This document shows, piece by piece, positions 31,505 to 52,865 of a stretch of 64,000 nucleotides of DNA (the first letter of the stretch is position 1; the number at the start of each line of letters is the position of its first letter). The notes beneath the pieces were generated by a model, which did not search any database, was not told where the DNA came from, and saw only the letters and a list, made by a program, of their open reading frames with translations. The stretch lies in IMG/VR virus record IMGVR_UViG_3300046010_015054, positions 64,001 through 128,000 of that record; one strand, 5' to 3'. Origin of the DNA: a virus. Position numbers and translations under genes: made by a program.

Positions 31505-33787
31505 TTATTTTTTTAGTAAAGGTTTAATTTTAGACATAACTAATTGTGGGGTAATTGATTTTTGACAAATATGTTGTTTATCAGTTCCTTTCCAAATAGG
31601 ACACCAATCCCAATCACCTGCATCAAACACAAAATTTGGATTAGTCCAACACGGAAAACAATTATCTGTTGTTATACGTGTAACACGAGAAGTAAATTCG
31701 TGGTTTTTTTCTGCAAAACCATTAATCATAGCTGTATGTTTCCCGATTGTCCAGTTCAACCAAGATAGACCTGAACCTAATCCAATAAATAAATCCGCAT
31801 GATAAAGATAATTAACTACTTTATCTATAGAATGCCCATAGTGATTAATGGTACCTGGAATTGTAAATTCTTTTTGTGTAAGAGAAATTATAGTATAACC
31901 TTGTTGGTTAAGTAATTTAACTAAAGCACACCAATATTCATACTTCCATTCTTTACAACCTGCTGTAGCATTAGGACCTATTACAATATATTTTTGTTTA
32001 TAAGGTCTTTCACCTTTAGGTACATTAATACCATAATTTAATTCTTTAAATTCTAACCCTAAAATATCTGTTGCAGTTGCTTGCATTGGGATAGTATTAC
32101 ATTGACGAGGGTGATAATTTGGGCTTTTCCAACCCCCATTTTCGTCTCTAAACCATCCTAATTTATAATGAGTAATACATTCAACAGCTGTTCCTGGGTT
32201 GGTGAATTCTATGTTTTTGTAAGCTTCTAATCCTTGGAACCAATCATTATGGAATGTAGAAAGTATAACTTTACAATTATGTTTTTTAGCAAATTCAACA
32301 ACATAAGGAACCCAACCAATGGTATCACCTATTGCTTTAGATTCTACCGTAATTAAAACTTTTTGATTAGTTAAATCTAATCTACTTGCTTCTTTACCAT
32401 CAATTTTTATTACCCAAGGTACATAGTACTCTGTACTACATTCAACCCACATATTATTGTTAATGGTTTGTGAATGGTGTACTTTACCGGTTGCAGAATC
32501 AATAAATTCTATAAAATAACTTTTGTTAATATTTCCTAAAATTTCTACTTTAGGTTTATTTAAATAACTAATATTTATTTTATTTTTATCTTCTACTTGA
32601 TTATATTCATCTAAAAATTCTTGTAAAGTATTCCGACCAATTTCAGCTACTTTATCCCAATTAAAATTTTGATGGATAATTTCAGACTCTTTATGTGCAC
32701 GTTTATAATGATCTTGATAATTTACGTAAGCATCTCTCATTACACGAGCTAAATCTTCAAAATCAGGTTCATAATAAGAACCTTCTACAAATTTTCCTTT
32801 ATAATTTGGATCCTTGGCAGGTAATTCTCCCCATACTTTTACAGGTAATCCTTTACCTTCAGCAAATTCCATTTGACCAGAGCATGCTGAGTAAATAGCT
32901 GGAGTACCACAAGCCATAGCCTCAATTAAAGGTAAATTCCATCCTTCACTACGAGCACAAGATAAAAATACATGACCTGTTTTTAAGTATTGAATGTAAT
33001 CTTCTCTAGAAGGAAAATGTACTACTTTGATGCGAGGATCTTCTAAACCATAATGCTTTAATCTATCTTCAGTAGTTTTTAAACCATCATCTGCAAATGG
33101 GTTATCAACCGAAAGTATTAAATCAACTTTCTCATCTGGTTTGAATTCTTTAAGAAAGGTTTCAATTATTTCTTTTGTAGATTTTCTATATTCCCAACGC
33201 CCAAACATTACAAATTTAAACCTATTATCCAAATATTCTTCTGGGAGTAATAGGTAGGGTTCAATTTTAAAGATATTAGTGTCTACACCCTCAGGTACAA
33301 CTTTTACTTTTTCAGCAGGCATACCTTGCTTAATAGTACATTCAGCTTGCCATTTTGAAGGTACCCAAATTTGATCAAATTCTTTTAATTTATTAAAAAA
33401 ATTTTCAGGTTGTAAAGTAGATTCCCAAACATTATATGCAATTTTAGGACCTACGTAATTATCATAAAAATAATGATGACCCGTAGCTTCTAAAATAATA
33501 TTAACATTATGTTTAAAATTATTTTCATAATTTTTATATATAGGAGAATCTTGCCTTTCGTAATCTACAAAAAGTGTTTGTTCAACTAATAATTTTTTAT
33601 CTAAATCATTTAAATAAGGTTCATTATTATGAGGTTCATCTTTATAACCTTCCCAAGTTTTACCTGCAGGAAAATTTCTAACTTTTACATCAAGATGTTT
33701 AGATAAATGTCTAAAAAAATCTCTTGTATGATTAGCGTAACCTGTAGGGCCTATATAAGGTCCGTGTGCATAAACTTTTGGTTTCAT
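31505..33787 (-). CDS. Fusion: GT4 glycosyltransferase + Aah/TibC-like (BAHT) protein O-glycosyltransferase
   Basis: N-half TGY, RSEGWNLPLIEAMACG (GT4). C-half AIGDTIGWVPY, YIVIGPNATAGCKEW, FIGLGSGLSWLNW, CFPCW...WCP...C, like the Fe-binding Cys set of autotransporter heptosyltransferases. Confidence 0.85.
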   Translation of the reverse strand: MKPKVYAHGPYIGPTGYANHTRDFFRHLSKHLDVKVRNFPAGKTWEGYKDEPHNNEPYLNDLDKKLLVEQTLFVDYERQDSPIYKNYENNFKHNVNIILEATGHHYFYDNYVGPKIAYNVWESTLQPENFFNKLKEFDQIWVPSKWQAECTIKQGMPAEKVKVVPEGVDTNIFKIEPYLLLPEEYLDNRFKFVMFGRWEYRKSTKEIIETFLKEFKPDEKVDLILSVDNPFADDGLKTTEDRLKHYGLEDPRIKVVHFPSREDYIQYLKTGHVFLSCARSEGWNLPLIEAMACGTPAIYSACSGQMEFAEGKGLPVKVWGELPAKDPNYKGKFVEGSYYEPDFEDLARVMRDAYVNYQDHYKRAHKESEIIHQNFNWDKVAEIGRNTLQEFLDEYNQVEDKNKINISYLNKPKVEILGNINKSYFIEFIDSATGKVHHSQTINNNMWVECSTEYYVPWVIKIDGKEASRLDLTNQKVLITVESKAIGDTIGWVPYVVEFAKKHNCKVILSTFHNDWFQGLEAYKNIEFTNPGTAVECITHYKLGWFRDENGGWKSPNYHPRQCNTIPMQATATDILGLEFKELNYGINVPKGERPYKQKYIVIGPNATAGCKEWKYEYWCALVKLLNQQGYTIISLTQKEFTIPGTINHYGHSIDKVVNYLYHADLFIGLGSGLSWLNWTIGKHTAMINGFAEKNHEFTSRVTRITTDNCFPCWTNPNFVFDAGDWDWCPIWKGTDKQHICQKSITPQLVMSKIKPLLKK

Positions 33788-33788
33788 A

Positions 33789-34538
33789 TTATCTCATTAT
33801 TGAACAACCCCCATCTAGTCCTCTATATCCATCAAAACCATGATAAATAGGACAAATTGGAACTCCGTGATTTCTTAAATGCTGTCTGAGTAAAGTTTCA
33901 TTAACAAACATATCATAATAGTACTGGTAATATTCAGGGTTTACAAAGATTGTTCGTAACATTTCAGGAAAGACATTATGGTAGGTTTTCATAACATCAT
34001 ATCCCCCAACAGCAAAAGTATCATTAAGTTGATCAGCCATACCCCATCTATCAGGATATTCAAAAAAATTAACTGCTTCAGGGTTTACTTTAGTAATGTC
34101 TTCTAAGAAGATACAATTTTCAGCTACTCTATGTGTCCAAAGTAAATCATATCTTGTTTTTATTACCAAATCATATTTAATACCGGAATTTTCTAACAAA
34201 TCCCAAGATCGTTTTAAAGATAACCACATTCCCATTTGGGAATTTAAGCGTTGGTTATTTTGTCCTTTTAAATCTGTAGCATCAAACTTTATTGCTTTTT
34301 CAAATAAATGTTTTTTAGGCTGATACCAATCTAATAGATTTTTGTAAGTATTTTGATCAACATTATAAACACGTTGCAATTTACCTTCATTAAAAAAATC
34401 ATACTTGTAAAAATGTTTATCAACCCAAGCATGCATATACACATCAATATCATATCGATCTAAAAACCAACGTTTTAGTTCTTTAAAACCATGTTTGTAT
34501 CTACGTGGCTGACCACTAATTGTTAAAGCTATTTTCAT
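33789..34538 (-). CDS. Putative glycosyltransferase-like protein (MKIA-ISG-PR family), paralog 1
   Basis: MKIALTISGQPR, DVYMHAW, YDLVIKTRYDL, NDTFAVG, ETLL; clearly paralogous to the next gene. Confidence 0.5.
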   Translation of the reverse strand: MKIALTISGQPRRYKHGFKELKRWFLDRYDIDVYMHAWVDKHFYKYDFFNEGKLQRVYNVDQNTYKNLLDWYQPKKHLFEKAIKFDATDLKGQNNQRLNSQMGMWLSLKRSWDLLENSGIKYDLVIKTRYDLLWTHRVAENCIFLEDITKVNPEAVNFFEYPDRWGMADQLNDTFAVGGYDVMKTYHNVFPEMLRTIFVNPEYYQYYYDMFVNETLLRQHLRNHGVPICPIYHGFDGYRGLDGGCSIMR

Positions 34539-35299
34539 CGAATAATATGGGCATGAAAATGTTTGGTTAAACTTTCAACATAATTTACCTCTACATTATT
34601 TTTTAGCATTACATGCCATTTTAAAAGACTTTCAGCAACAGTTTTATCCGCTGTACTTGTGACAGTTTTTAACCATTCACCATAATCTGGGTCTATAAAA
34701 ATGTAGTTAAGTATATAACAAAAATAATCAGAATAAATTTCAGCAATATGAGGTCCACTAACTATAAATTGATCATCAATTTCAGATGTTCGTTGAGGGA
34801 ATCCATTAATATCTGGGTATTTAAAGCAATTATATTTGTTAGGATCTAATTGAGTAATGTCTTTTAGAAAGATACATTTAGGAGATACATACTTAGTAAA
34901 TTGAAGATCAAATCTATATCTAATAATATAATCATATTCAATACCGGATTCACGTACTAAATTATAACAAGCATGAATTGAATAAGCAGCACTTAAAATA
35001 TTATGTAATTTATAATTTAAATGAGATCCGCGAATATCGGTTTCATCAAACGGTATAGGTGTTTGAAATTCGTATGCTTTAGGTTTATATAATTTTAAAA
35101 TTTTATCATAATCACTTTGTGTAAAAGTGTATGTTTTTTTTTCTAAAAAATCATGTCCAGTTTCAAAGACTGATGTAGTATCATACCAAGTATGGATGTA
35201 AACATCACAATCATACTTGTTTAAGAACCATTTTTTTAGTTCTTTAAAACCTAAATCATAATTGCGGGGTAAACCGCTTATACAAATTGCTACTTTCAT
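34535..35299 (-). CDS. Putative glycosyltransferase-like protein (MKIA-ISG-PR family), paralog 2
   Basis: MKVAICISGLPR, DVYIHTW, YDYIIRYRFDL, DDQFIVSG, ESLL. Confidence 0.5.
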   Translation of the reverse strand: MKVAICISGLPRNYDLGFKELKKWFLNKYDCDVYIHTWYDTTSVFETGHDFLEKKTYTFTQSDYDKILKLYKPKAYEFQTPIPFDETDIRGSHLNYKLHNILSAAYSIHACYNLVRESGIEYDYIIRYRFDLQFTKYVSPKCIFLKDITQLDPNKYNCFKYPDINGFPQRTSEIDDQFIVSGPHIAEIYSDYFCYILNYIFIDPDYGEWLKTVTSTADKTVAESLLKWHVMLKNNVEVNYVESLTKHFHAHIIR

Positions 35300-35910
35300 T
35301 ATCTATAATGACCTCCTCCTAACCAAAGAACAAATGATTTACGAGTACCTTTAATTACAGGTGTAACTCTATGAAGCATAAATGATGGGAAAATAATAAC
35401 AGTACCCTTACCTTTAGGACCTGTTAAAGGCATTTGCCCACCATTCCAAATTTCTAAATTACCCCCTTCATATTCTTCAGGGCCAGAAAGTTGAACTGTA
35501 ACTGAGAGTTTTCTAAAAGGCATAAATCCTTGGCTACCTATATCCATATGCCAATCATAGTGACCTTTATTAGTACCATAGTATTCAGTATATTGAATTT
35601 GTTCTGGCATAAAGTTTAGATCAAAATGATACATTTCTTTATTAGCTTCATATGCCATTAAACCAATTTTATCGTAAATCCATTTTGTATTTTCTGAAAA
35701 TGGAATCCATTTAATACTGGAATTGCGAGCATCTAAATTTTCACCTTGATCTTGTCCACCTTGCTCAGTAACAGCTGTTTGGAATTGCATTTCGGCTACT
35801 TGAGATTCAATTTGAGATAACTCATCAGTAGTAAAACCTTCTTGAAACCAATAATAATTACATTGGTTTACGGGATTTTCTAAAGGGAATGTATAATTAA
35901 CATTCATCAT
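35299..35910 (-). CDS. 2OG-Fe(II) oxygenase (prolyl-hydroxylase / PKHD-like)
   Basis: YDWHMD (HxD), RKLSVTVQL, YEGG, IFPSFMLHRVTPV, GTRKS. Confidence 0.9.
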   Translation of the reverse strand: MMNVNYTFPLENPVNQCNYYWFQEGFTTDELSQIESQVAEMQFQTAVTEQGGQDQGENLDARNSSIKWIPFSENTKWIYDKIGLMAYEANKEMYHFDLNFMPEQIQYTEYYGTNKGHYDWHMDIGSQGFMPFRKLSVTVQLSGPEEYEGGNLEIWNGGQMPLTGPKGKGTVIIFPSFMLHRVTPVIKGTRKSFVLWLGGGHYR

Positions 35911-35921
35911 GATTTTTTAAA

Positions 35922-38273
35922 TTAAGGATTTGTAAAAGAAATTAAAATATATCGGGTTCCTTCGATTACAGGACGTCCCCCGTGTTTGTGAGTAATTTGA
36001 CCAGGATGAGCCATAGCATATCCTTTTCTTTGAGGTTGGATTGTTAATTTATAGCGAGGGATAAAAGTACCACCTCCTTTAAATTCATCATTTAACCTAA
36101 CATTTAATGTAATAGCTGAGCTATCGTGGTGAATATCTAAGCTACCTTGATTATTTGTATCATATTTAGCAATAAAGTTTTCACTTTTTGAAGTTTGCCA
36201 ATTATTACCTTCAAGTTCCCAAAACCAAATCCAAATAGGATAAACAAATTGTTCTAGAACTTTTTGATAGATTTTTTGCATCTTTAAACTTTCCATAGTT
36301 TGGTCTGTTGTAGGATAAAAAGTATGTCTATCAGTTTTCCATTCATTTTGTTCAGCTAAAGCTATTACTTCATCACAGAATTTTTCAGTAAATAATGGGA
36401 ATTCAATAATATTAGGACCAATTTCATCAGTCATAAGCTTATATTGTCCTTTTAAAATATAAGGATCAATATATTTTTTACACCACTCTTCCCAGTTACT
36501 ATCATCTAAAATTTCAATTATAGGTTTATTACCTTCAGTTACTCCTACACTTTTATCTTGTTCAAAATAATTAACTTTTGGAGCAGCTACTTTTAATTTA
36601 GGTAGATCAGCAAAATCTGCTAAAATATCTTGACGATGAGTCATACCAAAAGTAATTGATAAAAACTCATCTAAAGCAAATATTTTACTTTTATAACGAG
36701 GGATCCACTCTTCTACTAGCTTTTGAACACCTGAACGTGATAAAATGTAGGCGTGTGAGTTATATGAATAATCAGGCTCTACCCAATTTCTAAATCCTTC
36801 TATAGGTTTTTCTAAATCAGGTTTAAGAGCATTACGTCCTAAATAAATCATATCATATCCTTTATCTAAAAGAGATTTTATATTTTCCCAGTTTACTGGG
36901 AGTTGTTCTTTAAAATCTTCTTCTAGAATAAAAGTTATTTCTCTATCATATTCATAAGCATCAACCCAAGCATCAATATGAGCTAAGGCACATCCTACTT
37001 CTCCATCTGTTACTTCGCGATTCCACCAATGACAACTACTTTCGATTTTCCAATTTGGGTGTTTTTTAACACCAAATTTTACTAAATCTTTTTGTGTTAA
37101 AGTGCGATAATCAAAACCAGTTTTTACCCAGTAGTTATAAAAACCAGGCATAGATAATTTATCGCATTTATCTTTAATTTGCTGAGTTTCATTTAAAGCT
37201 ATAACGTAAAAATGATCTAAATTCATATTTAATTTTAATAATAAAGGTATCCAGTTTCTTATTGTTACATACCACCAGTCAAGTGAATATACGTAATTTT
37301 GTGCTAATTGCCAATTTATATTGTCATTTTCATTAAGAGCATTAAAACCATGTAATGTTTCTTTTAAACCACCCCATTCCCAAGTAATAGGTAATACTTG
37401 ATGGCCTAACATTTCTAAAGCTGTTAAGCAAAATGTTTCTTCATATGTTGAAGGATAGTACCAATATTGACTATCCGCCATTAATTTATATAATTCTTTT
37501 TCGGGTAATGTACCTAAAAATTCTACATCATCCAAACTATCTACCCATTCTTTATAATATTGATTATAATATTCTAAACCATATTCAGGAGTACAAATTT
37601 TTAAGCTAGAATCAGGGGCTTCTTGTTTAATTTGAGGCCAATCTTCTAATACTCTAGCTAAACCTCTTTCAGCATGAGATGAATAGATATATTGATTTTT
37701 ATTTTTTTGATATAATTGAGAAGTTGGTTTTGGGAAGATTAAACCTTTTATTGCTTGGGGTTCAGGAAAAGTTTTTATAATTTTGCTAGCATCAATACCA
37801 TAACCAATAATTTTAATTTTACTTTCGGTTTCTGGGTATTGTTGGAGCCAAATTTCTCTATGCCATTTAGTTAAGCATATAATATATTTAAGTTTAGGAT
37901 GGATTAATAATTCTCTATGATTAGGTATTTCTTCTCCATTCCACCAATTATAATAATCGGTATTACTAAGCCAAAATATAGAATTTTTATAATTAAAATC
38001 TTCAAATTCTTTTAAATAATGTATATAATTTATTCCAATAATAGTATCAACTGAAGATTCTTCTTGTTTAAATTGTTTAGTAGTTCTATATTTTACATTA
38101 TCAAAATCTCCAGGAATAACATTTCCAACTACCCAAATATAATATTCAGGGAGTTTGGCTAATTCTTGTGCTAAATAATAAGTGGTTTTTTCTGTACCTC
38201 CTAAACCGGTAGTTTCTATAGAAGAAGGACCCCAAGGAGTTTTGTGATAACCTGTGTATAAAACTATTTTCAT
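35922..38273 (-). CDS. Tri-domain fusion: GT4-like glycosyltransferase + GT25 (COLGALT-like) + PLOD-type lysyl-hydroxylase 2OG-Fe(II) domain
   Basis: GLGGTE...ERGL...YPSTYEETFCLTALE (GT-B); GEVGCALAH--AW...ILEED...YLGR...HAYILS--G (GT25); FPLFTEKFC...YPTTD...FIAKY---Q-SL--HHDSS--TLNV-LN--F-GGG...HPG--TH-H-G-P---GTRYI-ISF (PLOD C-terminus). Start set at MKIVLY, downstream of the terminator and late motif. Confidence 0.85.
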   Translation of the reverse strand: MKIVLYTGYHKTPWGPSSIETTGLGGTEKTTYYLAQELAKLPEYYIWVVGNVIPGDFDNVKYRTTKQFKQEESSVDTIIGINYIHYLKEFEDFNYKNSIFWLSNTDYYNWWNGEEIPNHRELLIHPKLKYIICLTKWHREIWLQQYPETESKIKIIGYGIDASKIIKTFPEPQAIKGLIFPKPTSQLYQKNKNQYIYSSHAERGLARVLEDWPQIKQEAPDSSLKICTPEYGLEYYNQYYKEWVDSLDDVEFLGTLPEKELYKLMADSQYWYYPSTYEETFCLTALEMLGHQVLPITWEWGGLKETLHGFNALNENDNINWQLAQNYVYSLDWWYVTIRNWIPLLLKLNMNLDHFYVIALNETQQIKDKCDKLSMPGFYNYWVKTGFDYRTLTQKDLVKFGVKKHPNWKIESSCHWWNREVTDGEVGCALAHIDAWVDAYEYDREITFILEEDFKEQLPVNWENIKSLLDKGYDMIYLGRNALKPDLEKPIEGFRNWVEPDYSYNSHAYILSRSGVQKLVEEWIPRYKSKIFALDEFLSITFGMTHRQDILADFADLPKLKVAAPKVNYFEQDKSVGVTEGNKPIIEILDDSNWEEWCKKYIDPYILKGQYKLMTDEIGPNIIEFPLFTEKFCDEVIALAEQNEWKTDRHTFYPTTDQTMESLKMQKIYQKVLEQFVYPIWIWFWELEGNNWQTSKSENFIAKYDTNNQGSLDIHHDSSAITLNVRLNDEFKGGGTFIPRYKLTIQPQRKGYAMAHPGQITHKHGGRPVIEGTRYILISFTNP

Positions 38274-38300
38274 AAACCTATATATAATATAAATATAAAA

Positions 38301-38321
38301 GGGGGACATTCAAAGTCCCCC
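38301..38321 (-). terminator. Intrinsic terminator after the collagen genes
   Basis: GGGGGAC-N7-GTCCCCC followed by TTTT on the minus strand. Confidence 0.8.
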
Positions 38322-38344
38322 TTATTAAAAATACTTATAAATTT

Positions 38345-41300
38345 TTAAACTAATTCTAGTTTTTCAAATTTAACATCAATTTTGCTATAGTCTACAGCAT
38401 AATAACCATTTTCAGCTATTACCACAGCGTCTTCAAATTGTGTTCCTAATAATTCTTGAGCCATTACACCAATATATCTAGTATTAGGATCATTAATGTA
38501 ATTATACTCGTAAATATTAATACCTAATTTAGATACACCTATTTTTACAATATTTTCTTTTAATCTAATATCTGATGTTTTTCTGTATTGAAGATAACCA
38601 TCGGCAAAATCTAATGTTTGTGAAAAATTTACTGTAAATAATTTAAAATTTACAGTTAAACCTATAGGTCCAGTACCTTCAGCCCCAATAAGACCTCTAG
38701 AACCAATAGGACCACGAGGGCCGATAGGACCTCTAGGACCTTGAGGACTAGAACCAACAGCACCAATAGGACCACGAGGACCAATATTACCAATAGGACC
38801 TTGAGGGCCTTGAATAGTACTAGCTGGGCCTCTATTGCCCCGAGGGCCTTGTACTCCTATAGGTCCTATAGGACCTTGTGGGCCCGGACCAATAGGACCA
38901 ATTATACCTCTAGGACCTTGGGGTGCAACGCCAATTGGGCCAATATTACCAATAGGACCAATTGGACCCCATGGACCACGAGGACCAATAGGACCTTGTA
39001 TGCCTTGTGGACCTTGTGGGCCCGGGCCTATAGGACCAATAATGCCAGTAGGTCCAATAGGACCTCTAGGACCAATGTTACCAATAGGGCCTTGAATGCC
39101 CTGTGGACCTTGTGGGCCAGGACCAATTGGACCAATATTACCAATAGGACCAATTGGACCCCATGGACCACGAGGACCAATAGGACCTTGTATGCCTTGT
39201 GGACCTTGTGGGCCCGGGCCTATAGGACCAATAATACCTTGAGGACCAATAGGACCTCTAGGGCCTACAATATCAGTTACATCTCCTGCAATGCCTTTAG
39301 GACCTTGAATGCCTGTAGGGCCTTGAATACCTTGTGGGCCTTGAGGACCAGGTCCAATAGGACCTATAATACCTTGGGGTCCTCTAGGACCAATAGGACC
39401 AATGTTACCAATAGGGCCTTGAATACCTTGTGGACCTTGAGGTCCAGGACCTATAGGGCCGATAATACCTTGAGGACCACGAGGACCAATGTTACCAATA
39501 GGGCCAATTGGGCCTATTATACCCCGTGGACCAATAGGACCAGGTCCAATATTACCAATAGTACCTTGTGGACCTATATTTCCAATTGGACCCTGAATAC
39601 CTTGAGGACCACGAGGTCCAATAGGTCCTTGTGGGCCTGGTCCAATAGGACCAATAATGCCAGTAGGTCCAATAGGACCCCAAGGACCTCGCGGACCAAT
39701 AGGGCCTATAATACCCTGAGGGCCTTGAGGACCAGGACCTATAGGGCCTATTATACCTTGAGGACCACGAGGACCAATAGGACCTTGAATATCATTTATA
39801 TCACCCGGAATACCTTTAGGACCTATAATACCTGTGGGGCCTTGAATGCCTTGTGGACCTTGTGGGCCAGGACCTATAGGACCTATAATACCCTGAGGTC
39901 CTCTAGGGCCAATAGGACCAATGTTACCAATAGGGCCTTGAATGCCCTGTGGACCTTGTGGGCCAGGACCTATAGGACCTATAATACCCTGAGGTCCTCT
40001 AGGGCCAATAGGACCAATGTTACCAATAGGACCTTGAATGCCCTGTGGACCTTGTGGGCCTGGGCCAATAGGGCCGATAATACCTTGAGGACCAATATTA
40101 CCCCGAGGACCTTGTATTCCTTGAGGGCCTTGAATACCCTGAGGTCCTTGTGGACCTGGGCCAATTGGACCTTGAATTCCAATAGGTCCAATAGGACCCC
40201 AAGGACCTCGTGGGCCAATAGGGCCTATAGTACCTTGAGGACCTTGTGGGCCCGGGCCTATAGGACCAATAATACCTTGAGGACCAATAGGACCACGAGG
40301 ACCTATAGCATCAGTTACATCTCCAGCAATACCTTTAGGACCTATAATACCTGTGGGGCCTTGAATGCCTTGTGGACCTTGAGGTCCGGGACCTATAGGA
40401 CCAATAATACCCTGAGGTCCCCGAGGACCAATAGGACCTTGTGTACCTTGCGGGCCTTGAATACCCTGAGGCCCTTGTGGGCCTGGACCAATTGGGCCTT
40501 GGATACCTAAAGGACCTCTAGGACCAATAGGACCAATGTTACCAATAGGACCTTGAATACCTCGCGGGCCTTGTGGACCCGGACCAATAGGACCTATAAT
40601 ACCTTGAGGACCACGAGGGCCAATAGGGCCTTGAAGATCACCAGTATCACCTGGGATACCTTTAGGACCTTGTATGCCTGTAGGTCCTTGGGTACCTTGC
40701 GGGCCTTGTGGACCTGGACCAATAGGACCGATAATACCTTGAGGTCCTCTAGGACCAATAGGCCCTTGAATACCTTGTGGACCCTGAATGCCCTGTGGGC
40801 CTTGAGGTCCAGGACCGATTGGACCCTGAATGCCTAAAGGTCCTCTAGGACCAATTGGGCCTATATTGCCAATAGGACCTTGAATACCTTGTGGACCTTG
40901 AGGTCCAGGGCCTATAGGACCAATAATACCTTGTGGACCTCTAGGACCAATAGGTCCCTGAGTACCTTGTGGGCCTTGTATGCCTTGTGGGCCTTGTGGT
41001 CCAGGTCCAATGGGGCCTTGAATTCCAATAGGTCCAATAGGACCCCATGGACCTATTAAACCACGAGGACCTTGAATACCTTGTGGGCCTTGTGGTCCTG
41101 GTCCAATAGGGCCTATAATACCTGTAGGACCTTGAATACCTTGAGGTCCTATTAAACCTCTTGGACCTTGTGGACCTTGTGGTCCTGGTCCAATAGGACC
41201 TATAATTCCTTGTGGTCCACGAGCGCCAATAGGACCTTGTATACCTTGTGGACCTTGTGGACCTTGTGGTCCTGGTCCAATAGGACCAATTATACCTCTT

Positions 41301-41707: not shown

Positions 41708-44620
41708 AGATTATTAAGGGTTATAAGCTGTTAATACTCCGGCTACATAATTAAATGAAGGGTTACCTCCACTAGTATTAAGAGCAAAAGTTGTAGTAAC
41801 TCCAGTTGGTGCATTATTACCTGCTGGGCCCTGAGGACCAATGGGGCCTTGAGGACCAATAGGACCAATAGGACCAATAGCGCCTGTAGCACCTGAAGGG
41901 CCAATAGGACCTTGTGGGCCAATGGGTCCAATGTTACCAATAGGACCTTGAGCACCAGATGCACCAACAGGACCAATAGGACCCTGAATACCTTGTGGGC
42001 CTATATTTCCAATAGGACCAGTTGGGCCAATAGGACCAATAGGACCTTGAGGACCAATAGGGCCTGTAGGACCGATAGGGCCAATAGGACCAATATTACC
42101 TTGAGGGCCTTGTGGTCCAATGGGGCCAATATTACCAATTGGACCTTGGGGGCCAATAGGACCTGTAGGGCCAATAGGACCAATAGGACCTTGTGCACCA
42201 ATAGGTCCGATAGGGCCAATAGGACCAATATTACCAATTGGACCTTGAGGACCAATAGGGCCTGTAGGACCAATTGGGCCAATAGGGCCAATATTACCTT
42301 GGGGACCTTGAGGACCTATAGGACCGATATTACCAATTGGACCTTGCACACCAATAGGACCTGTAGGACCAATAGGACCGATAGGACCCTGTGGGCCGAT
42401 AGGACCAATAGGGCCTTGGGGGCCTGGAGCTTGATTATCTCCTTTAGGTCCAATTGGGCCTTGAGCGCCAATAGGGCCTTGAGGGCCAATAGGACCAGTT
42501 GGACCGATTGGACCAATAGGACCCTGTGGACCAATAGGACCAATAGGACCTATGGGACCAATATTACCAATAGGACCTTGAGGGCCAATAGGACCAGTTG
42601 GGCCAATTGGACCGATTGGACCTTGAGGACCAATTGGACCAATGTTACCAATTGGACCGATTGGACCAATAGGACCTTGAGGACCAATAGGGCCTGTAGG
42701 ACCAATAGGGCCAATAGGACCTTGTGGACCAATGGGGCCAATATTACCAATTGGACCTTGAGGACCAATAGGACCAATAGGACCAATGGGGCCAGTAGGT
42801 CCTATAGGACCAATAGGACCTTGGTTACCTTGTGGACCTTGTGGACCAATTGGACCAATAGGACCAATAGGACCTTGAGGGCCAATAGGTCCAGTAGGAC
42901 CAATGGGGCCGATAGGACCTTGAGGACCAATAGGACCGATAGGACCAATGGGGCCAGGTGCTTGGTTGTCTCCTTTAGGACCAATAGGACCTTGTACTCC
43001 AATAGGACCTTGAGGACCAATTGGACCCGTAGGACCAATAGGACCGATAGGGCCTTGAGGACCAATTGGGCCAATAGGGCCAATAGGACCAATATTACCA
43101 ATTGGACCTTGAGGACCAATAGGACCTGTAGGACCGATAGGGCCAATAGGGCCTTGGGGTCCGATAGGACCAATAGGACCTATAGGACCAATATTACCAA
43201 TTGGACCTTGGGGGCCAATAGGACCTGTAGGACCGATAGGACCGATAGGACCTTGTGGGCCGATTGGACCAATAGGACCAATTGGGCCTTGAGCTCCAAT
43301 AGGACCTTGTGGACCTATAGGACCTGTAGGACCAATAGGACCGATAGGGCCTTGGTTTCCTTGAGGACCCTGTGGGCCAATAGGACCGATAGGACCGATA
43401 GGACCTTGTGGGCCGATTGGACCAGTTGGTCCGATAGGACCAATTGGACCTTGAGGGCCGATAGGTCCAATAGGACCTTGAGGACCAGGTGCTTGGTTAT
43501 CTCCTTTAGGTCCAATAGGACCTTGTACTCCAATAGGACCTTGTGGACCAATCGGGCCAGTAGGACCAATTGGGCCAATAGGACCCTGTGGGCCAATAGG
43601 ACCAATGGGACCAATAGGGCCTTGAGCTCCAATAGGACCTTGAGGACCAATTGGACCTGTAGGACCGATAGGACCTATAGGACCTTGAGGACCTTGAGGA
43701 CCAATAGGGCCAATAGGGCCTATAGGACCTATGGGACCTTGTGGACCGATCGGACCAGTTGGACCAATTGGACCAATAGGGCCTTGGGGGCCAATCGGAC
43801 CAATAGGACCGATAGGGCCCGGAGCTTGGTTGTCTCCTTTAGGTCCAATAGGACCTTGTGCACCTATAGGACCTTGTGGGCCAATAGGACCAGTTGGGCC
43901 AATTGGACCGATTGGACCTTGAGGACCGATAGGACCTATAGGACCAATTGGGCCTTGAGCTCCAATAGGACCTTGTGGACCTATAGGGCCAGTTGGGCCA
44001 ATTGGACCTATGGGACCTTGAGGACCAATTGGACCAATAGGACCGATGGGGCCGATAGGACCTATGGGACCTTGAGGGCCAATTGGACCAGTTGGACCAA
44101 TTGGACCAATAGGACCTTGTGGGCCGATAGGACCAATCGGACCGATAGGACCAATTGGACCAATAGGACCTTGAGGACCGATAGGACCCGTAGGACCAAT
44201 TGGGCCAATAGGGCCTTGGTTACCTATAGGACCTTGTGGACCAATTGGACCTTGAGGACCGATTGGACCTTGTGGGCCGATAGGACCTGTAGGACCGATA
44301 GGACCAATTGGGCCTTGAGCACCAATAGGACCCTGTGGACCAATGGGGCCAATTGGGCCTTGTGGGCCTTGAGGACCTGTAGGACCGATAGGACCAATTG
44401 GACCTTGAGGACCGATAGGGCCAATAGGGCCGATAGGACCCTGTGGGCCAATAGGACCAATAGGACCTGTAGGGCCGATAGGACCGATAGGGCCCTGAGG
44501 ACCAATAGGACCAATAGGGCCTATGGGACCTTGTGCTCCAATAGGGCCTTGTGGTCCAATAGGACCAATAGGACCTTGTGGGCCTTGTGGACCTTGAGGA
44601 CCAATTGGACCTTGAGGACC
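38680..44620. repeat. 9-bp-unit degenerate tandem repeats encoding collagen Gly-X-Y (two blocks, ~38680-41420 and ~41820-44620)
   Basis: ggaccaata / ggaccttga units with heavy synonymous variation; 11-triplet super-period. Confidence 0.95.
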
Positions 44621-44914
44621 ACCACCTGTTATGGTTCCAGCTGTACCTTCTACTTCTAAAGTATTTGTACCACTATTAAACCAAACTTGTCCTGGGATTG
44701 GTGAAGAAGGAGAGGATCCTACAACAGGTAATACAAAAGTAGCATTATTAGCAATGGCTAAACTGCCACTATCAATAGTAGCAATGTTAACAGAACCACT
44801 TTTGATTGTTAATTGACCCGCTGATGCAAAATCAAATTTAATTTCTTTACCTACAGCAGTATCTTGGAAATTTAAGCTACCTGATTTTGGTATTATCTGT
44901 ACGTTTTTTGCCAT
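41714..44914 (-). CDS. Collagen-like fibre chain B (no chaperone domain)
   Basis: ~935 aa of near-perfect Gly-Pro-(I/Q/T); N-terminus paralogous to chain A ([14 protein letters not shown]). Confidence 0.9.
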
Positions 44915-44936
44915 CTTTTATATATACTAATAAATA

Positions 44937-47900
44937 TTAGCCTTTTACGGGATATTCAACTATTAATTTCGGATCTACTTTTCTTTCTGCAAATACTACG
45001 TAATAAGCGTTTACTTCTCCACATTCACATGCTACCACGACTTGTTCAACTGACGCTGATAATACGTAGTGAGTACATGATTTTCCAATAGGTGTTAATT
45101 GTACTGATAGGCTATCATGGTATACTAAATCTTTCCAGTAATCAGGTAATGTAATTACTCCATCTCCTTCTACTTTACCTCTAATATACACACCAGTTTC
45201 TGGTCCCTCAAGCACTGAGTAGCGAAGTCTCCATCCTTCTTTTGAAGGGTGTGGTATATCAAAGTTTTTAACGTTACCATTGATTTCATTAAAGTTATTA
45301 ATATTAGAAGTTCCGGCACCATCAATATTACCAGTACCATCCATAGTAATGTTTCTAACATTACTAACATCAGTATTGTTCATATCAATGCCACCTTGAA
45401 CACTAATATCTCCGTTAACTCCTAATGTTGTGCCAGTAAATGTTAAGTTAGCTTCACCATTAATTAGACCAGCGGTACCAGTTGCGGTTAATACGTAGTT
45501 GTTAGTATTGTTGTTTATAGTAGCAGCGCCTGACGTACCTGATGAACCTGATGAGCCACTAGAACCGCTAGTACCACTAGAACCGGATGAACCTGATGAA
45601 CCGCTTGTACCTGAAGAGCCTGATGTACCACTAATGCCTATACCTGATGAACCTGAAGAACCTGATGTTCCTGAAGTGCCATTTACACCTGATAAACCTG
45701 AAGAACCAGATGTTCCAGAAGAGCCGCTTGAACCAGATGAGCCTGAGCTACCACTTGAGCCACTTGTACCTGATGAACCTGAAGTTCCTGATGAACCTGA
45801 AGTTCCTGATGAACCTGATGAGCCTGAACTGCCAGAAGATCCTGAACTGCCTGAAGTACCAGAGGAGCCTGAAGAACCACTAGTTCCTGATGAGCCTGAG
45901 CTACCTGAAGAGCCACTTGAACCTGATGTACCAGAAGAGCCTGAACTACCACTTGTGCCTGATGAGCCTGAGCTACCTGAAGATCCAGAAGAGCCACTAG
46001 TACCTGATGAACCTGAACTTCCTGACGTGCCTGATGAACCTGATGAGCCTGATGAGCCTGAAGTACCAGATGAGCCACTTGAGCCAGATGTTCCTGAAGA
46101 ACCTGAACTACCTGATGAACCTGATGAACCTGAAGTACCACTAGTTCCGTTTATACCTGATAAACCTGAAGAACCAGATGTTCCGCTTGAACCAGATGAG
46201 CCTGAGCTGCCACTTGTACCTGAAGAGCCTGAAGTTCCTGATGAACCACTAGTTCCTGAAGAGCCTGAACTACCTGAAGAACCAGAACTTCCACTAGTAC
46301 CTGATGTTCCGCTTGAACCTGAAGTACCTGATGAGCCTGAACTTCCACTTGAACCTGATGAACCTGAACTACCTGAAGTACCTGAAGTTCCTGAAGTACC
46401 ACTAGAACCAGATGTTCCTGATGAGCCTGAAGAACCAGAGCTGCCTGAAGATCCTGAAGTACCAGACGAACCTGAGCTTCCGCTAGTTCCTGATGAACCA
46501 CTAGAACCTGAGCTGCCTGATGAGCCTGATGTTCCTGAAGAACCACTTGTACCTGAAGTACCGGATGAACCACTTGAACCAGATGAACCTGAACTACCTG
46601 AAGTTCCTGATGTACCGTTAATACCACTTAAACCTGATGAGCCACTTGTACCAGATGAACCTGAGCTACCTGATGAGCCTGAAGAGCCACTAGTACCTGA
46701 AGTACCTGAACTGCCTGAAGTACCTGAACTACCGCTTGAACCTGATGAACCAGAGCTTCCGCTAGTTCCTGAGGTACCACTTGAACCTGATGTTCCTGAT
46801 GAACCACTTGAACCAGATGAACCTGAAGAGCCACTTGTACCTGAAGTACCAGATGAACCACTTGTTCCTGATGAGCCTGAAGAACCTGATGAACCAGAAG
46901 AACCACTTGTACCTGAAGTACCTGATGAACCACTAGTACCAGAAGTACCTGATGAACCTGAAGAGCCACTTGAGCCACTTGAACCAGAAGTTCCTGAAGA
47001 ACCTGAAGTACCTGAAGAACCTGAGCTACCACTTGTACCTGATGAGCCACTTGAACCTGAAGTTCCAGATGAGCCACTTGTTCCAGAAGTACCATTAATA
47101 CCACTTAAACCTGATGATCCAGATGTACCTGAGGTACCAGATGAACCTGATGATCCTGATGTGCCTGATGTTCCGCTTGAACCTGAAGTGCCTGATGTTC
47201 CTGATGAACCAGATGAACCAGAACTTCCACTAGTACCTGATGTACCGCTTGAGCCAGAAGTTCCTGATGAACCTGAGCTACCTGAAGATCCTGATGAGCC
47301 GCTAGTTCCTGAAGTTCCTGATGAACCGCTTGAACCTGATGTACCTGAAGAGCCACTTGAACCACTTGAACCGGAAGTACCACTTGTACCTGAAGTACCA
47401 TTTATACCTGAAAGGCCTGATGAACCAGATGTTCCTGAAGAACCTGAAGTTCCGCTAGTTCCTGATGAACCTGAGCTGCCTGATGTTCCTGATGAACCTG
47501 AAGTACCAGATGAGCCATCTGTACCACTAGTTCCTGATGAGCCACTAGAACCTGAACTACCACTTGAACCAGATGTTCCGCTTGAACCTGAAGTTCCGCT
47601 TGAACCTGAAGAGCCACTTGAACCACTAGTTCCTGAAGTACCAGATGAACCACTTGTTCCTGATGAACCTGAACTACCTGAACTGCCTGATGTACCGCTA
47701 GTACCTGAAGTTCCGTTTATACCGCTTAAACCTGAAGAACCTGATGTTCCTGAAGAGCCAGATGTACCTGAAGTACCTGAACTGCCTGATGAGCCCGAGC
47801 TACCACTTGTACCAGATGAACCATCTGTACCAGATGTACCACTTGAACCTGAAGAACCTGAAGTACCACTTGTACCACTTGTTCCTGAAGAACCTGAAGA

Positions 47901-50900
47901 TCCTGAAGTGCCGCTTGAACCTGAACTACCGCTTGAACCTGAAGAACCTGATGTTCCACTAGTACCTGAAGAGCCATCCGTACCTGAGGTACCTGATGAA
48001 CCAGATGAACCTGAAGTACCTGAAGTTCCGTTTATACCTGAAAGACCTGATGATCCTGAAGTACCTGAAGTACCTGAAGAACCACTAGTTCCACTTGAAC
48101 CTGATGAGCCTGAACTACCTGAGGTTCCACTTGTACCTGAAGATCCGTCTGTACCTGATGTACCTGATGAACCGCTTGTTCCTGATGAACCTGATGAACC
48201 TGATGTACCAGATGAACCTGAAGAACCACTTGTTCCTGATGAACCATCTGTACCTGAAGTACCTGAGCTACCTGAAGAACCTGAGCTACCTGAAGTGCCA
48301 GATGAACCATCTGTACCACTTGTACCCGAAGTACCTGAAGTACCATTAATACCACTTAAACCTGAAGATCCAGATGTACCTGAAGTGCCTGAACTTCCTG
48401 AAGTACCTGATGAGCCTGAGCTACCTGATGTTCCTGAAGATCCTGAAGTACCAGATGAGCCATCTGTACCAGATGTACCTGAGGAACCACTAGTTCCTGA
48501 TGAACCACTAGAACCTGAAGTTCCACTAGAGCCTGAACTACCTGAAGTACCACTTGAGCCATCTGTACCTGAAGTACCAGATGAACCAGATGATCCTGAG
48601 CTGCCTGAAGTACCAGATGAGCCATCTGTACCGCTTGTGCCTGAAGTACCTGAAGTACCATTAATACCACTTAAGCCAGAAGAACCACTTGTTCCTGAGC
48701 TACCTGAAGTACCACTTGTTCCTGAAGAACCTGAGCTACCACTTGTACCACTAGTTCCTGATGAACCATCTGTACCTGAGGTACCGCTTGAACCTGATGT
48801 TCCTGATGAGCCACTTGAACCCGAAGTTCCAGATGAACCAGAACTACCTGAAGTGCCTGAAGAACCATCTGTACCAGATGTTCCTGAAGATCCTGAACTA
48901 CCTGAGCTACCACTAGTGCCTGAAGTACCTGAGCTACCATCTGTACCACTTGAACCTGAAGTTCCAGAAGTACCACTTGTTCCGTTTATACCTGATAAAC
49001 CAGAAGAACCACTTGTTCCGCTTGTACCTGAAGAACCATCTGTACCACTTGTACCAGATGAACCAGATGTACCACTTGAGCCACTAGTTCCTGAAGATCC
49101 GTCTGTACCTGAAGTTCCTGAAGAACCGCTAGTACCTGATGAGCCTGAACTACCACTTGTGCCTGATGAGCCTGAACTACCTGATGTACCTGATGAACCA
49201 TCTGTGCCGCTTGTACCAGATGAACCTGAACTACCACTAGTACCTGAAGTACCTGAAGAACCATCTGTACCTGAAGTACCTGATGAACCACTTGTACCTG
49301 AAGTGCCATTTATACCTGAAAGACCTGAGCTACCTGATGTGCCACTAGTACCTGAAGTACCATCTGTACCACTTGTACCAGAAGTGCCACTTGTACCCGA
49401 AGAACCATCTGTACCTGAGGTGCCAGATGAACCATCTGTCCCTGAAGTTCCTGATGAACCTGAAGATCCAGATGTTCCTGATGAACCACTTGAACCAGAT
49501 GTACCTGAAGTACCTGAAGAGCCATCTGTACCTGAAGTACCGCTTGAACCATCAGTACCTGAAGTACCACTTGTGCCGGATTCACCTGAGGTTCCTGATG
49601 AACCACTTGTACCTGAGGTGCCGTTTATACCGGATAAACCTGAAGATCCGCTGGTTCCGCTTGTGCCTGAAGAACCATCTGTACCAGAAGTACCAGATGA
49701 GCCAGATGTTCCGGATTCACCACTTGTACCAGATGAACCATCTGTACCAGAAGTGCCTGAAGTACCTGATGTACCATTTATACCTGAAAGACCAGATGAA
49801 CCAGAGGTACCAGAAGAACCATCTGTACCCGAAGTACCAGAAGTGCCACTAGAACCATCTGTACCCGAAGTACCTGAAGAACCATCGGTACCACTTGTAC
49901 CTGATGAACCACTAGTACCTGAAGTACCATTAATACCACTTAATCCCGAACTTCCACTTGTTCCGCTTGTACCTGAAGATCCGTCTGTACCTGAAGTACC
50001 CGAAGAACCGCTTGTACCTGATTCACCGCTTGTACCCGAAGAGCCATCAGTTCCTGAAGTACCAGAAGTACCGCTTGTTCCGTTTATACCTGAAAGGCCT
50101 GAAGAGCCTGAAGTGCCAGATGAACCATCTGTACCAGATGTGCCTGATGAACCACTTGTGCCAGAAGTACCTGAAGAACCGTCTGTACCTGAAGTACCGC
50201 TTGAGCCATCAGTACCTGAGGTACCACTTGTACCTGAGGTTCCATTAATACCGCTTAAACCTGATGAACCTGATGTACCACTTGAACCATCTGTACCAGA
50301 TGTACCAGAAGAACCACTAGTTCCTGATGAACCAGATGTACCTGAACTACCATCTGTACCTGAAGTGCCACTTGAGCCATCAGTACCTGAAGTGCCACTT
50401 GTTCCGTTTATACCTGAAAGGCCTGAAGAGCCTGAAGTGCCACTTGTACCAGATGAACCATCTGTACCAGATGTGCCTGATGTTCCGCTTATACCTGAAC
50501 TACCATCTGTACCTGAAGTACCAGATGAACCATCTGTTCCTGAAGTTCCTGATGTGCCGCTTGTTCCGTTTATACCAGACAAACCAGAACTACCTGAAGT
50601 GCCACTTGAGCCATCAGTACCTGAAGTTCCTGATGAACCACTTGTACCACTTGTACCACTTGTGCCTGATGAGCCATCTGTACCTGATGTTCCTGAAGAA
50701 CCATCTGTACCACTTGTACCAGAGGTTCCATTAATTCCTGAAAGGCCTGAACTACCACTAGTACCTGAAGTGCCATCTGTACCACTTGTACCAGAAGTAC
50801 CACCTGTACCTGAAGTACCACTTGAACCATCTGTACCTGATGTACCTGAAGTACCATCTGTACCACTAGTTCCAGAAGTACCATTTATACCACTTAAACC

Positions 50901-52865
50901 TGAAGATCCGCTTGTTCCACTTGTACCAGATGAACCATCTGTACCAGAGGTACCAGAGGTACCAGAAGTGCCTGAAGAACCATCTGTTCCTGATGTTCCT
51001 GATGAACCATCTGTACCTGAGGTACCGCTTGTGCCCGAAGTACCATTTATACCACTTAAACCTGAAGAACCTGAGGTACCTGAAGTACCACCTGTACCAC
51101 TTGTACCAGAAGTACCACCGGTACCTGAAGTGCCACTTGTTCCTGAAGTTCCGGATTCACCACTTGAGCCTGATGTTCCAGATGTACCATTTACACCTGA
51201 TAATCCTGATGTGCCTGAGGTTCCTGAAGTACCTATACCTGAAGTTCCACTTGAACCACTTGTTCCAGAAGTGCCATCTATACCTGATGTACCTGAAGTA
51301 CCTGCTTCTCCTGAAGTGCCACTTGTACCCGAAGTACCATTAATCCCAGAAGTTCCTGATGAACCATCTGTACCTGAGGTACCACTAGTACCTGATTCTC
51401 CTGATGTGCCTGATGTTCCTGAAATTCCACTTGTACCTGAAGTACCAGATTCACCACTTGTTCCACTTGTACCAGATTCTCCAGAGGTACCTGAAGTACC
51501 AGACTCACCTGAAGTACCGGATGTACCTGAAATTCCTGATGTACCTGATGTACCCGAAGTACCTATACCAGAAGTGCCAGAAGTTCCTGATGAACCATCA
51601 GTACCTGAAGTGCCACTAGTACCTGATTCTCCTGATGTACCTGAAGTACCAGTTTCACCTGAAGTACCACTTGTGCCTGAAGTACCAGAAGATCCTGAGT
51701 CTCCTGAAGTGCCTCCTGTAATAGTTACTAATACTGCTGTACCTGATCCTGTTGATTCAACTTGTACACCACTACCAGTAAAGTAGAACGCACCGATATT
51801 GGTATCAACGAGTGAGCCCGTATAATAAATTGTAGTACCAATAGTAACGTTAACTTCTCCTGGATTACTGCCAGTTTCTGCAACTACACCTGATCCTGTA
51901 AAGTTAATTAGTGTAGCGTTTGTTGTTAAGACAAAATTTTCGTCTGAAATTGTAATAGCAGAACCTGCTCCTGAAGTACCTGAGGTACCGCTAGTACCAG
52001 TTTCACCTGAAGTACCACTTGTACCAGATGATCCTGAAGAGCCTATGCCTGAAGTACCTGAGGTACCACTTGTTCCTGAAGTTCCTTCACCTGATGTACC
52101 AGAAGTGCCACTTGTACCATTAATACCAGAAGTACCTGAAGTACCATCAGCACCCGAAGTACCACTTGTACCTGATGTGCCTACGCCTGAAGTGCCAGAT
52201 GAACCATCTGTACCTGAAGTACCACTTGTTCCTGATGTACCTACACCTGAAGTACCAGATGAACCATCTGTACCTGAAGTACCTGATGTGCCTGAAGAAC
52301 CGATACCTGAAGTACCGGAAGAACCATCTGTACCAGATGTTCCTGAAGTACCTGAAGAGCCTGTACCTGATGTACCTGAAGTACCATCTGTTCCAGATGT
52401 GCCGCTGGTACCTGATGTGCCTACACCTGAAGTACCTGAAGTGCCATCTGTACCTGAAGTACCTGATGTGCCTGAAGAACCGATACCTGAAGTACCACTT
52501 GTACCAGATGAACCATCTGTACCTGAAGTACCTGAAGAACCTATACCTGATGTACCTGAAGTACCACTTGTGCCTGAAGTTCCTGAAGAACCTGAAGAAC
52601 CTGAAGAACCAGAACCACCACCAGTACCAGTAATTGTAATAGTAGCACCATTTGAACCAGACGCTTCAACAAAAACCCCACTACCTGTAAAGTTTAATGT
52701 TGCAACATTTGATACAACTAATGAACTTGTGTAGTAAATATTAACTGCTCCACCTATACCGGAAGTACCTGAAGTACCTGAAGTGCCATCTGTGCCACTT
52801 CCTCCACCGGTTGACTGAAAACTCCCAATTGATATTTGGTCTAAAAATCTAGCGTTACTGGCCAT
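44937..52865 (-). CDS. Giant Ser/Thr/Gly (Gly-X-Y) repeat fibre protein with C-terminal chaperone-like domain, 2642 aa
   Basis: >2000 aa of SGT/SGS/DGS triplets; C-terminal KNFDIPHP...LRY--LEGPE-GVY-RG domain typical of phage fibre chaperones. Confidence 0.88.
45530..51710. repeat. 9-bp-unit degenerate tandem repeat encoding SGT/SGS triplets
   Basis: cctgaagta / cctgatgaa / ccacttgta units; SGLSGING nodes at regular intervals. Confidence 0.95.

Follow-up and report, generated by a model that had tools for sequence, protein, structure and literature searches.

A bacteriophage gene cassette predicted to hydroxylate and glycosylate the phage's own collagen-like virion fibres

The glycan of animal collagen, Glc-α1,2-Gal-β-Hyl, is built by an inverting step followed by a retaining step (PMC12003778). 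The collagens of prokaryotes and phages, according to a 2022 review, are largely without hydroxylation and glycosylation, mimivirus being the viral exception (PMC8968730). In a 2010 paper, Iyer et al. named collagen-like proteins as predicted targets of bacterial beta-hydroxylases and ascribed the dioxygenase arrays of cyanophages to secondary metabolism (PMC2938197), and studies of aquatic myophages have connected the glycosyltransferases of fibre islands with remodelling of the host lipopolysaccharide (LPS) and called phage genes resembling prolyl 4-hydroxylase (P4H) cryptic (PMC7029224, PMC9301287). In the full-text literature, a coverage that leaves out most subscription journals, we found no description of collagen lysyl hydroxylase, PLOD, COLGALT or L230-type enzymes in bacteriophages. 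Here we describe a 64,000-nucleotide stretch of DNA from a large aquatic bacteriophage (hereafter the window), i.e., bases 64001-128000 of the 170,105-bp IMG/VR record IMGVR_UViG_3300046010_015054, which CheckV rates as complete. In the window, three genes for collagen-like fibres (P0008, P0007 and P0006) are followed by a cassette of five enzyme genes (P0001, P0005, P0004, P0003 and P0002). The observed homologies, catalytic residues, folds, gene order and tracking of fibre type by enzyme type are best read as a module that self-modifies the virion fibres of the phage; we consider this reading probable, with substrates, sugars, order of steps and purpose as proposed below.

The first enzyme of the cassette, P0001, is a fusion of a GT4 glycosyltransferase, a COLGALT1-like GT25 glycosyltransferase and a PLOD-type lysyl hydroxylase. 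A preliminary description of this DNA had claimed a GT25-PLOD fusion on the strength of the motifs FPLFTEKFC, YPTTD, HHDSS-TLN, HPG-TH-H-G and GTRYI-ISF; all of these are present in the protein, and the fusion was recovered by both phmmer and Foldseek. The protein has an additional N-terminal GT4 domain that had not been claimed. A phmmer search of the PDB with residues 605-795 gave E 9e-26 for human LH3/PLOD3 and 2e-25 for the lysyl hydroxylase domain of mimivirus L230; P4H, the next family, followed at 0.014. Residues 398-557 retrieved COLGALT1 as the sole match among all PDB sequences (E about 1e-13). Pfam placed GT4-type domains at residues 119-323 and Glyco_transf_25 at residues 366-466, the latter with 30.1 bits against a gathering cut-off of 24. 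The AlphaFold2 model of the protein (mean pLDDT 84) had full-length LH3 as its best Foldseek match (E 1e-25). In this model the hydroxylase domain takes a double-stranded beta-helix fold that superposes on a solved lysyl hydroxylase domain, that of L230, with a target-normalised TM score of 0.87 and a root-mean-square deviation (rmsd) of 1.7-1.8 Å over 205 columns at 34% identity. The model of the middle domain matches COLGALT1 (228 columns, rmsd 3.0 Å), and that of the N-terminal domain matches retaining GT4 enzymes, e.g., MshA and PimA. By sequence as well as by structure, the hydroxylase domain thus groups with PLOD3 and L230 and with nothing else, and the GT25 domain with COLGALT1.

The catalytic residues of all domains of P0001 are intact. 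H727, D729, H776 and R786 align with the residues of LH3 that bind iron and 2-oxoglutarate (2OG), which we take to be H667, D669, H719 and R729, and 15 of the 17 family members in the alignment retain them. E463-x-D465 of the GT25 domain is invariant in the family and aligns with Glu435/Asp437 of COLGALT1, part of an unusual Glu-Asp-Asp Mn2+ site that has been shown to be catalytic (PMC12003778). Invariance also extends to the E-x7-E pair of the GT4 domain (E291, E299).

All three fibres carry long Gly-X-Y runs, predicted to form a triple helix, which Pfam matched to Collagen at E 1e-280 (P0008), 3e-120 (P0007) and 2.5e-89 (P0006), the PF01391 scores being, in rising order, 293, 392 and 906 bits, all above the cut-off of 27.2. 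At a rise of 0.286 nm per residue, the predicted helix lengths are about 0.26-0.65 µm. The helix of P0008 has Thr or Ser at X and Ser at Y, and contains neither Pro nor Lys. The helices of P0006 (K349, K458, K631 and K804) and P0007 (K359, K470, K647 and K824) contain four lysines each, and a listing of the residues bore out the earlier statement that G-P-K-G accounts for every one of them. In P0007, four G-P-K-G-D-N-Q-A-P motifs hold the sole helix lysines and form the sole helix breaks, and P0006 has four G-P-K-G-I-[PA]-G-D sites. The lysine motifs of both chains also interrupt the Gly-X-Y register, each lysine preceding a helix break by one to three triplets. The four lysine-plus-break motifs of the two chains (38345-44914) lie at near-equal distances from homologous N-terminal domains, a spacing compatible with two chains in register. 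We also noted that a short motif, [VI]-D-[YF]-[YV]-x-P-x-[WY]-x-x-P or a near variant, ends P0007 (about 41714-41800) and the fibres at L104, L105, L113, L125 and L142; as a common end of chemically different fibres, it may be a trimerisation or attachment knob.

The last enzyme of the cassette, P0002, joins a GT4 domain to a C-terminal half that matches the protein O-heptosyltransferase TibC in the PDB (E 2e-30). P0002 also matches the NCBIfam family TIGR04414 (BAHT) with 206.1 bits (E 7.7e-61), above the curated cut-off of 200. None of 44 phage homologues deviates at its catalytic D488 or at the four cysteines of the iron finger (C710, C713, C729 and C741). D488 corresponds to the residue substituted in TibC chain 4RB4 relative to 4RAP. 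The catalytic aspartate of TibC is presumably D110. No autotransporter is found among the window annotations, no search having been aimed at autotransporters. P0003 and P0004 gave only a faint DUF7796 signal with Pfam, and the AlphaFold2 model of P0003 (pLDDT 90) has a GT-A fold whose nearest neighbours are retaining GT6 and GT8 transferases. The "prolyl-hydroxylase-like" label that had been given to P0005 holds at the level of the 2OG-Fe(II) oxygenase superfamily and no further, since its best matches are of the PKHD/YbiX/PiuC type (E 1.5e-8), a true P4H reaching only 0.019; a similar gene is also found in relatives without collagens. A literature search on PiuC found nothing. Over all five genes, this makes six predicted glycosyltransferase domains and two oxygenases (Table 1).

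Table 1. Coordinates in the window of the fibre genes, the enzyme cassette and the genes at its boundaries (aa, amino acids)
Feature	Position	Strand	Remarks
PhoH	55770-56492	-	upstream context of module
Head-tail adaptor / head-completion-like gene	54507-55727	-	upstream boundary of module
P0008, giant G-[TS]-S collagen-like fibre with globular C-terminal domain	44937-52865	-	2642 aa, 758 triplets
P0007, collagen-like fibre, mostly G-P-I and G-P-Q	41714-44914	-	1066 aa, 308 triplets
P0006, collagen-like fibre with C-terminal Peptidase_S74 intramolecular chaperone	38345-41707	-	1120 aa, 282 triplets
Hairpin and T tract between last collagen gene and enzyme cassette	38299-38323	-	9 pairs, 6 G-C; consensus scan
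P0001, three-domain fusion	35922-38273	-	GT4, COLGALT1-like GT25, PLOD-type hydroxylase
P0001, N-terminal GT4 (GT-B, retaining type)	37275-38273	-	Pfam; fold match MshA, PimA
P0001, middle GT25	36525-37232	-	related to COLGALT1 catalytic GT2 domain (PMC12003778)
P0001, C-terminal PLOD-type lysyl hydroxylase	35925-36512	-	H727, D729, H776, R786
P0005, 2OG-Fe(II) oxygenase, PKHD/YbiX/PiuC type	35299-35910	-	intact HxD...H...R
P0004, P0003 paralogue	34535-35299	-	GT-A fold inferred; model made for P0003 only
P0003, DUF7796-like, predicted GT-A fold	33789-34538	-	AlphaFold2 model
P0002, GT4 and TibC/Aah-type protein	31505-33787	-	Pfam, PDB search, TIGR04414
P0002, N-terminal GT4 domain	32528-33787	-	Pfam
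P0002, C-terminal TibC/Aah-type protein O-heptosyltransferase homologue	31523-32521	-	residues 423-755
Tail sheath gene	29331-31148	-	downstream boundary of module

The architecture of P0001 is not confined to the window. GT4-GT25-hydroxylase proteins form more than 200 protein clusters at 90% identity, some of them from contigs of 90-178 kb. At E <= 1e-3, 2239 representative relatives of the hydroxylase domain were counted, and 75 at E <= 1e-30; some stand alone, others are fused to GT25 or belong to three-domain proteins. A hydroxylase relative is encoded by 386 IMG/VR contigs; the query of the locus scan was a 6-sequence alignment of the hydroxylase, a 27-sequence version being too diverse. 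About 30 contigs show the five-gene cassette in synteny (the fusion, a P4H-like gene, two to four DUF paralogues and the GT4-TibC gene). Stand-alone hydroxylase homologues, 43-49% identical, were also seen in chromosomes and metagenome-assembled genomes of Thiotrichales (Thiothrix, Thiolinea, Leucothrix and Cocleimonas; L288, L291-L306).

The co-occurrence of the fusion with collagens, which the preliminary description had put forward as a check across related phages, was confirmed within the clade of the fusion itself. Where at least 5 kb of upstream sequence was available, all three-domain loci (15/15) have same-strand collagen-like open reading frames (ORFs) directly upstream, and with at least 600 nt upstream, 22 of 24 do. 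Lysine in these collagens stands almost exclusively at the Y position: near a hydroxylase we counted 1135 lysines in Y and 28 in X (62 distinct collagen ORFs), against 196 in Y and 73 in X in a background of 77 viral collagen ORFs, which were picked by a Gly-periodicity DNA pattern and had no hydroxylase in the fetched stretch. The density of Y-position lysine is 11.9% of triplets near a hydroxylase and 4.4% in the background.

A second comparison was anchored on the tail sheath gene and covered relatives with at least 6 kb upstream of it. Among those with a TibC-like gene and no hydroxylase, seven of nine have collagen-like ORFs, and the collagens of all seven loci are of the G-[TS]-S type, without Pro and without Y-position lysine. 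In the two exceptions, the upstream flank is wholly occupied by other enzyme genes. Not counted were another two TibC loci, whose flanks are shorter (5.5 and 6.0 kb); in both, the contig end cuts off a Gly-periodic Ser/Thr-rich ORF. L247, a contig from the unrelated pattern sample, also has a GT4-TibC gene beside a Ser/Thr-only collagen. Sheath relatives without either enzyme had no collagen-like ORF in any of 18 cases (p = 4e-5 against the TibC loci, the loci being related), and the closest cultured phage, Flavobacterium phage vB_FspM_immuto, has neither the enzymes nor collagens. From the pairing of TibC with G-[TS]-S collagens and of the hydroxylase with Y-position lysine, it therefore appears that two enzyme arms track two fibre chemistries, and the phage of the window has both arms and both fibre types.

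Several observations weigh against self-modification of the fibres as the function of the module. To begin with, lysines are scarce in the collagens of the window, Y-position lysine making up 1.4% of triplets compared with 4.4% in the background sample, and the helices of P0006 and P0007 have just four each. The Fisher test that separates hydroxylase-adjacent from background collagens by Y versus X lysine (p = 1e-34) overstates independence, because the loci are phylogenetically related. In addition, association with collagens is looser outside the three-domain clade. In a split clade, with a separate GT4 and a GT25-hydroxylase protein, collagen lies upstream in 10 of 28 loci and within 10 kb in 15 of 28, and for stand-alone hydroxylase loci, the upstream figure is 3/8. 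No collagen-like ORF lies within 10 kb of the hydroxylase homologues of Thiotrichales, e.g., on the Thiothrix fructosivorans chromosome (L302). As for the point named in the preliminary description as damaging to its claim, namely enzymes in relatives without collagen genes, the outcome was as predicted, in that relatives without the enzymes are also without collagens, with the qualification that in distant clades many hydroxylase homologues have no collagen within 10 kb. A PF01391 search of the full records of 30 hydroxylase loci without a nearby collagen matched seven; since these records are fragmentary (5-80% complete), this search neither supports nor refutes co-occurrence.

These same data could be accommodated if the hydroxylase acted on the collagens but its product went into covalent cross-links or formed a hinge where the helix is broken, or if the main substrates were non-collagen virion proteins. 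Such a role would suit lysines that are few, always adjoin helix interruptions and occupy matching positions in both chains, as well as the many hydroxylase homologues of other clades that have no collagen neighbour. Nevertheless, in more than 200 protein clusters the hydroxylase shares a polypeptide with a COLGALT1-like domain whose metal site is intact, and from this we argue that hydroxylation and glycosylation are coupled. No lysyl-oxidase-like gene turned up either, in searches that were not aimed at lysyl oxidase. We regard this explanation as unlikely.

We think it very improbable that the fibres go unmodified and that the cassette is merely carried along in an inactive or vestigial state. 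The idea draws on two divergent GT4-GT25-hydroxylase proteins, P0126 and P0127, that have lost the catalytic residues of the hydroxylase (D to S, H to Y and R to Q) while keeping the GT25 E-x-D. The collagen upstream of one such relative (L335:3-860, L335:917-3250) keeps a G-P-K-G site followed by a helix break, so that strict dependence of the site on the hydroxylase is not supported, the comparison being with a single partial contig. Against the idea stand the intact catalytic residues of the window's own enzymes, which are conserved in homologues down to about 55% identity, and the synteny of the cassette in dozens of contigs.

A third possibility is that the transferases and oxygenases remodel glycans of the host surface (LPS, O-chain or capsule), e.g., to block superinfection, and lie next to the fibres because both belong to a common variable host-recognition island. 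GT4, GT25 and GT9 also count among the classic families of LPS glycosyltransferases, the pelagimyophage literature reads the glycosyltransferases of host-recognition clusters as remodelling the host O-chain (PMC7029224), and other sheath relatives, in which no collagens were detected, hold different enzyme cassettes at this position. On the other hand, three domains of the cassette have best characterised relatives (PLOD/L230, COLGALT1 and TibC) that all modify proteins, LPS synthesis offers no obvious role for a peptidyl-lysine hydroxylase joined to two glycosyltransferases, and the type of enzyme follows the chemistry of the fibre across loci. Moreover, homology searches with the five cassette proteins returned no flippase, polymerase or lipid-carrier family. 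Remodelling of the host surface is thus, in our estimate, improbable as the function of the cassette.

A last point that counts against the proposed modification of the fibres concerns the supply of sugar. The genome does not encode a complete ADP-heptose pathway, as it has no GmhA and no epimerase. We rejected a phage-encoded supply of ADP-heptose or UDP-Gal on these grounds and because the one cytidylyltransferase-like ORF is sub-threshold; this ORF (137 aa; G000:C1:7265-7654, minus strand) scores 96 bits against rfaE domain II (heptose-1-phosphate adenylyltransferase), for which the cut-off is 181.5. About 13-17 kb before the window start (G000:C1:about 46600-51400; L168:1136-5864) lies a cluster that encodes a HAD_2 and NTP_transferase fusion (457 aa), a RuBisCO-like protein (411 aa) and two Methyltransf_24 proteins; an activated, modified sugar with which to glycosylate the fibres might come from these proteins. 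The earlier claim that the phage hydroxylates and glycosylates its own collagen fibres nevertheless has the support of homology, fold and co-occurrence, and we rate it as likely to be right.

We propose that the self-modification of fibres proceeds in two arms. In the first, which would take place in the host cytoplasm ahead of assembly, P0001 would act on newly made, unfolded chains of P0006 and P0007. Its PLOD-type domain would hydroxylate the Y-position lysines of G-P-K-G using Fe2+, 2OG and O2, and the GT25 domain would add a hexose to the new hydroxyl, by inverting transfer if the analogy with COLGALT1 holds; a UDP-Gal donor and a hydroxylysine acceptor are suggested for this domain solely by its fusion to the hydroxylase. 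The retaining GT4 domain of P0001 would then probably attach a second sugar, which would parallel the order of steps in animals, and the fusion of three domains would let every step finish before the triple helix closes. In the second arm, the TibC-like domain of P0002 would O-glycosylate Ser or Thr in P0008, the G-[TS]-S fibre; extension of this glycan would probably fall to the GT4 domain of P0002 together with the GT-A proteins P0003 and P0004. P0005 would hydroxylate a further, unspecified substrate. As to purpose, the glycans may stabilise the proline-free helix, hydrate the fibres, shield them against protease or give them an adhesive coat.

The start of P0001 bears on how the cassette may be expressed. 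The longer ORF starts at 38309, but the family consensus begins at M13, and the gene is therefore placed at 35922-38273. The 36 bases 5' of M13 overlap the terminator-like hairpin at 38299-38323. This hairpin, ahead of the cassette, is possibly a partial terminator and could lower the expression of the enzymes relative to that of the fibres.

All genes of the region are on the minus strand. In the direction of transcription, PhoH, the head-tail adaptor-like gene and two unknown ORFs are followed by the three Gly-X-Y genes and the five enzyme genes, and 3' of the cassette come a small ORF, the tail sheath, the tail tube and the baseplate hub. ORF coordinates and strand thus agree with the layout given in the preliminary description, in which three giant Gly-X-Y genes and then five enzyme genes lie between neck and tail sheath. 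The same frame is found in immuto, whose sheath is 55% identical and whose PhoH, head completion gene, variable fibre region, sheath, tube and hub all correspond. A nucleotide search against cultured phages gave one match, which was irrelevant. The G+C content rises from about 0.30 to 0.42-0.52 over the collagen genes, as expected from Gly and Pro codons. The T4 late promoter TATAAATA shows no enrichment: 15 matches were found where 11.7 would be expected, and most of these lie on the wrong strand. We dropped it as a candidate promoter here. In the sheath relatives L089, L092, L098, L109, L122 and L136, other non-fibre cassettes of 7-10 kb, including a P0005-like oxygenase, lie between the fibre region and the sheath, and it seems that the neck-to-sheath island combines fibres with modifying enzymes in general. 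Outside the window, the phage also encodes GroEL-like (550 aa) and GroES-like (96 aa) chaperonins (G000:C1:54148-56094; L167:4149-6095), with clamp loader genes in the same stretch.

A related enzyme was found in a cultured phage, the Synechococcus phage S-8S53 (OQ504982). Its 621-aa protein (L001:11908-13773), annotated only as "2OG-Fe(II) oxygenase family protein", combines a COLGALT1-like GT25 domain (E 1.5e-20), an LH3-type glucosyltransferase domain (E 1.4e-34), which also matches mimivirus R699, and a lysyl hydroxylase. The gene is located after those for a P0005-like oxygenase and a 1452-aa tail fibre (L001:6000-10358) that has a G-Q-K-G-rich collagen stretch and, as judged by eye, an S74-like chaperone motif at its end. 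Since enzyme and collagen fibre stand side by side in S-8S53, the prediction can be put to the test in a cultivable system.

If fibres are indeed modified as proposed, hundreds of uncultured phages and at least one cultured cyanophage would glycosylate very long collagen fibres, and the annotation of such genes as "auxiliary metabolic" should change. A glycan layer on the virion could affect adsorption, stability and grazing, and compact single-chain enzymes that are active in bacteria would become available for producing hydroxylated and glycosylated recombinant collagen. A prokaryotic and viral ancestry of PLOD and COLGALT also becomes directly testable. We further entertain, with confidence a little short of even, a wider view in which a complete animal-type collagen pathway operates in the bacterial cytoplasm next to an orthogonal TibC arm matched to proline-free Ser/Thr collagens, and in which PLOD-COLGALT modules of phages and bacteria are the pool that giant viruses and animals have tapped.

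Among described systems, the metazoan LH/PLOD1-3 and GLT25D1/COLGALT1 enzymes (PDB 6FXK, 9EVJ and 8ZGC) share with P0001 the hydroxylase fold, the Fe/2OG ligands, the GT25 fold and the E-x-D Mn motif. The predicted phage pathway would also resemble the metazoan one in its target, X-Lys-Gly in a Gly-X-Y chain, and in its order, hydroxylation first and then sugar. In contrast to animals, where the two proteins form a complex in the endoplasmic reticulum, the phage has a single polypeptide, in the cytoplasm. The N-terminal two-thirds of P0001 consist of GT4 and GT25; the N-terminal glycosyltransferase and accessory domains of LH3 are absent, a GT4 domain of GT-B type being there instead, and the single GT25 domain replaces the two-domain GT1+GT2 layout of COLGALT1, of which the non-catalytic GT1 is missing. 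Mimivirus L230/R699 (PDB 6AX6 and 9DYT; PMC5802723, PMC9546862) is likewise virus-encoded and bifunctional and acts on the collagen-like proteins of the virus itself, as is predicted for the phage enzyme. However, L230, a lysyl hydroxylase and glucosyltransferase, comes from a giant virus that infects amoebae; it has an LH3-type GT-A domain, in place of which the phage fusion, in a bacterial host, has GT25 and GT4. The middle domain of the S-8S53 protein is nearer to L230 and R699 than is the fusion of the window.

The second arm resembles TibC/Aah (BAHT, TIGR04414; PDB 4RAP and 4RB4) in scoring above the family cut-off and in sharing the catalytic aspartate and the four-cysteine iron finger. 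It differs from TibC/Aah in that the phage domain is fused to a GT4 domain, and its proposed acceptor is a G-[TS]-S collagen-like fibre, not an autotransporter. Pro-poor or Thr-rich Gly-X-Y proteins with O-glycans that stabilise or coat the helix are familiar from BclA of Bacillus anthracis and the Thr-rich cuticle collagen of Riftia, which involve different enzymes and organisms and have no lysine hydroxylation arm. Mycobacteriophages glycosylate their virions with phage glycosyltransferases that decorate the C-termini of their own capsid and tail-tube proteins, a system with no collagen, hydroxylase or TibC-type enzyme. The hydroxylation and glycosylation of viral collagen lysines is known from mimivirus, and what is new at this locus is the bacteriophage setting, the three-domain architecture and the second, TibC-type arm.

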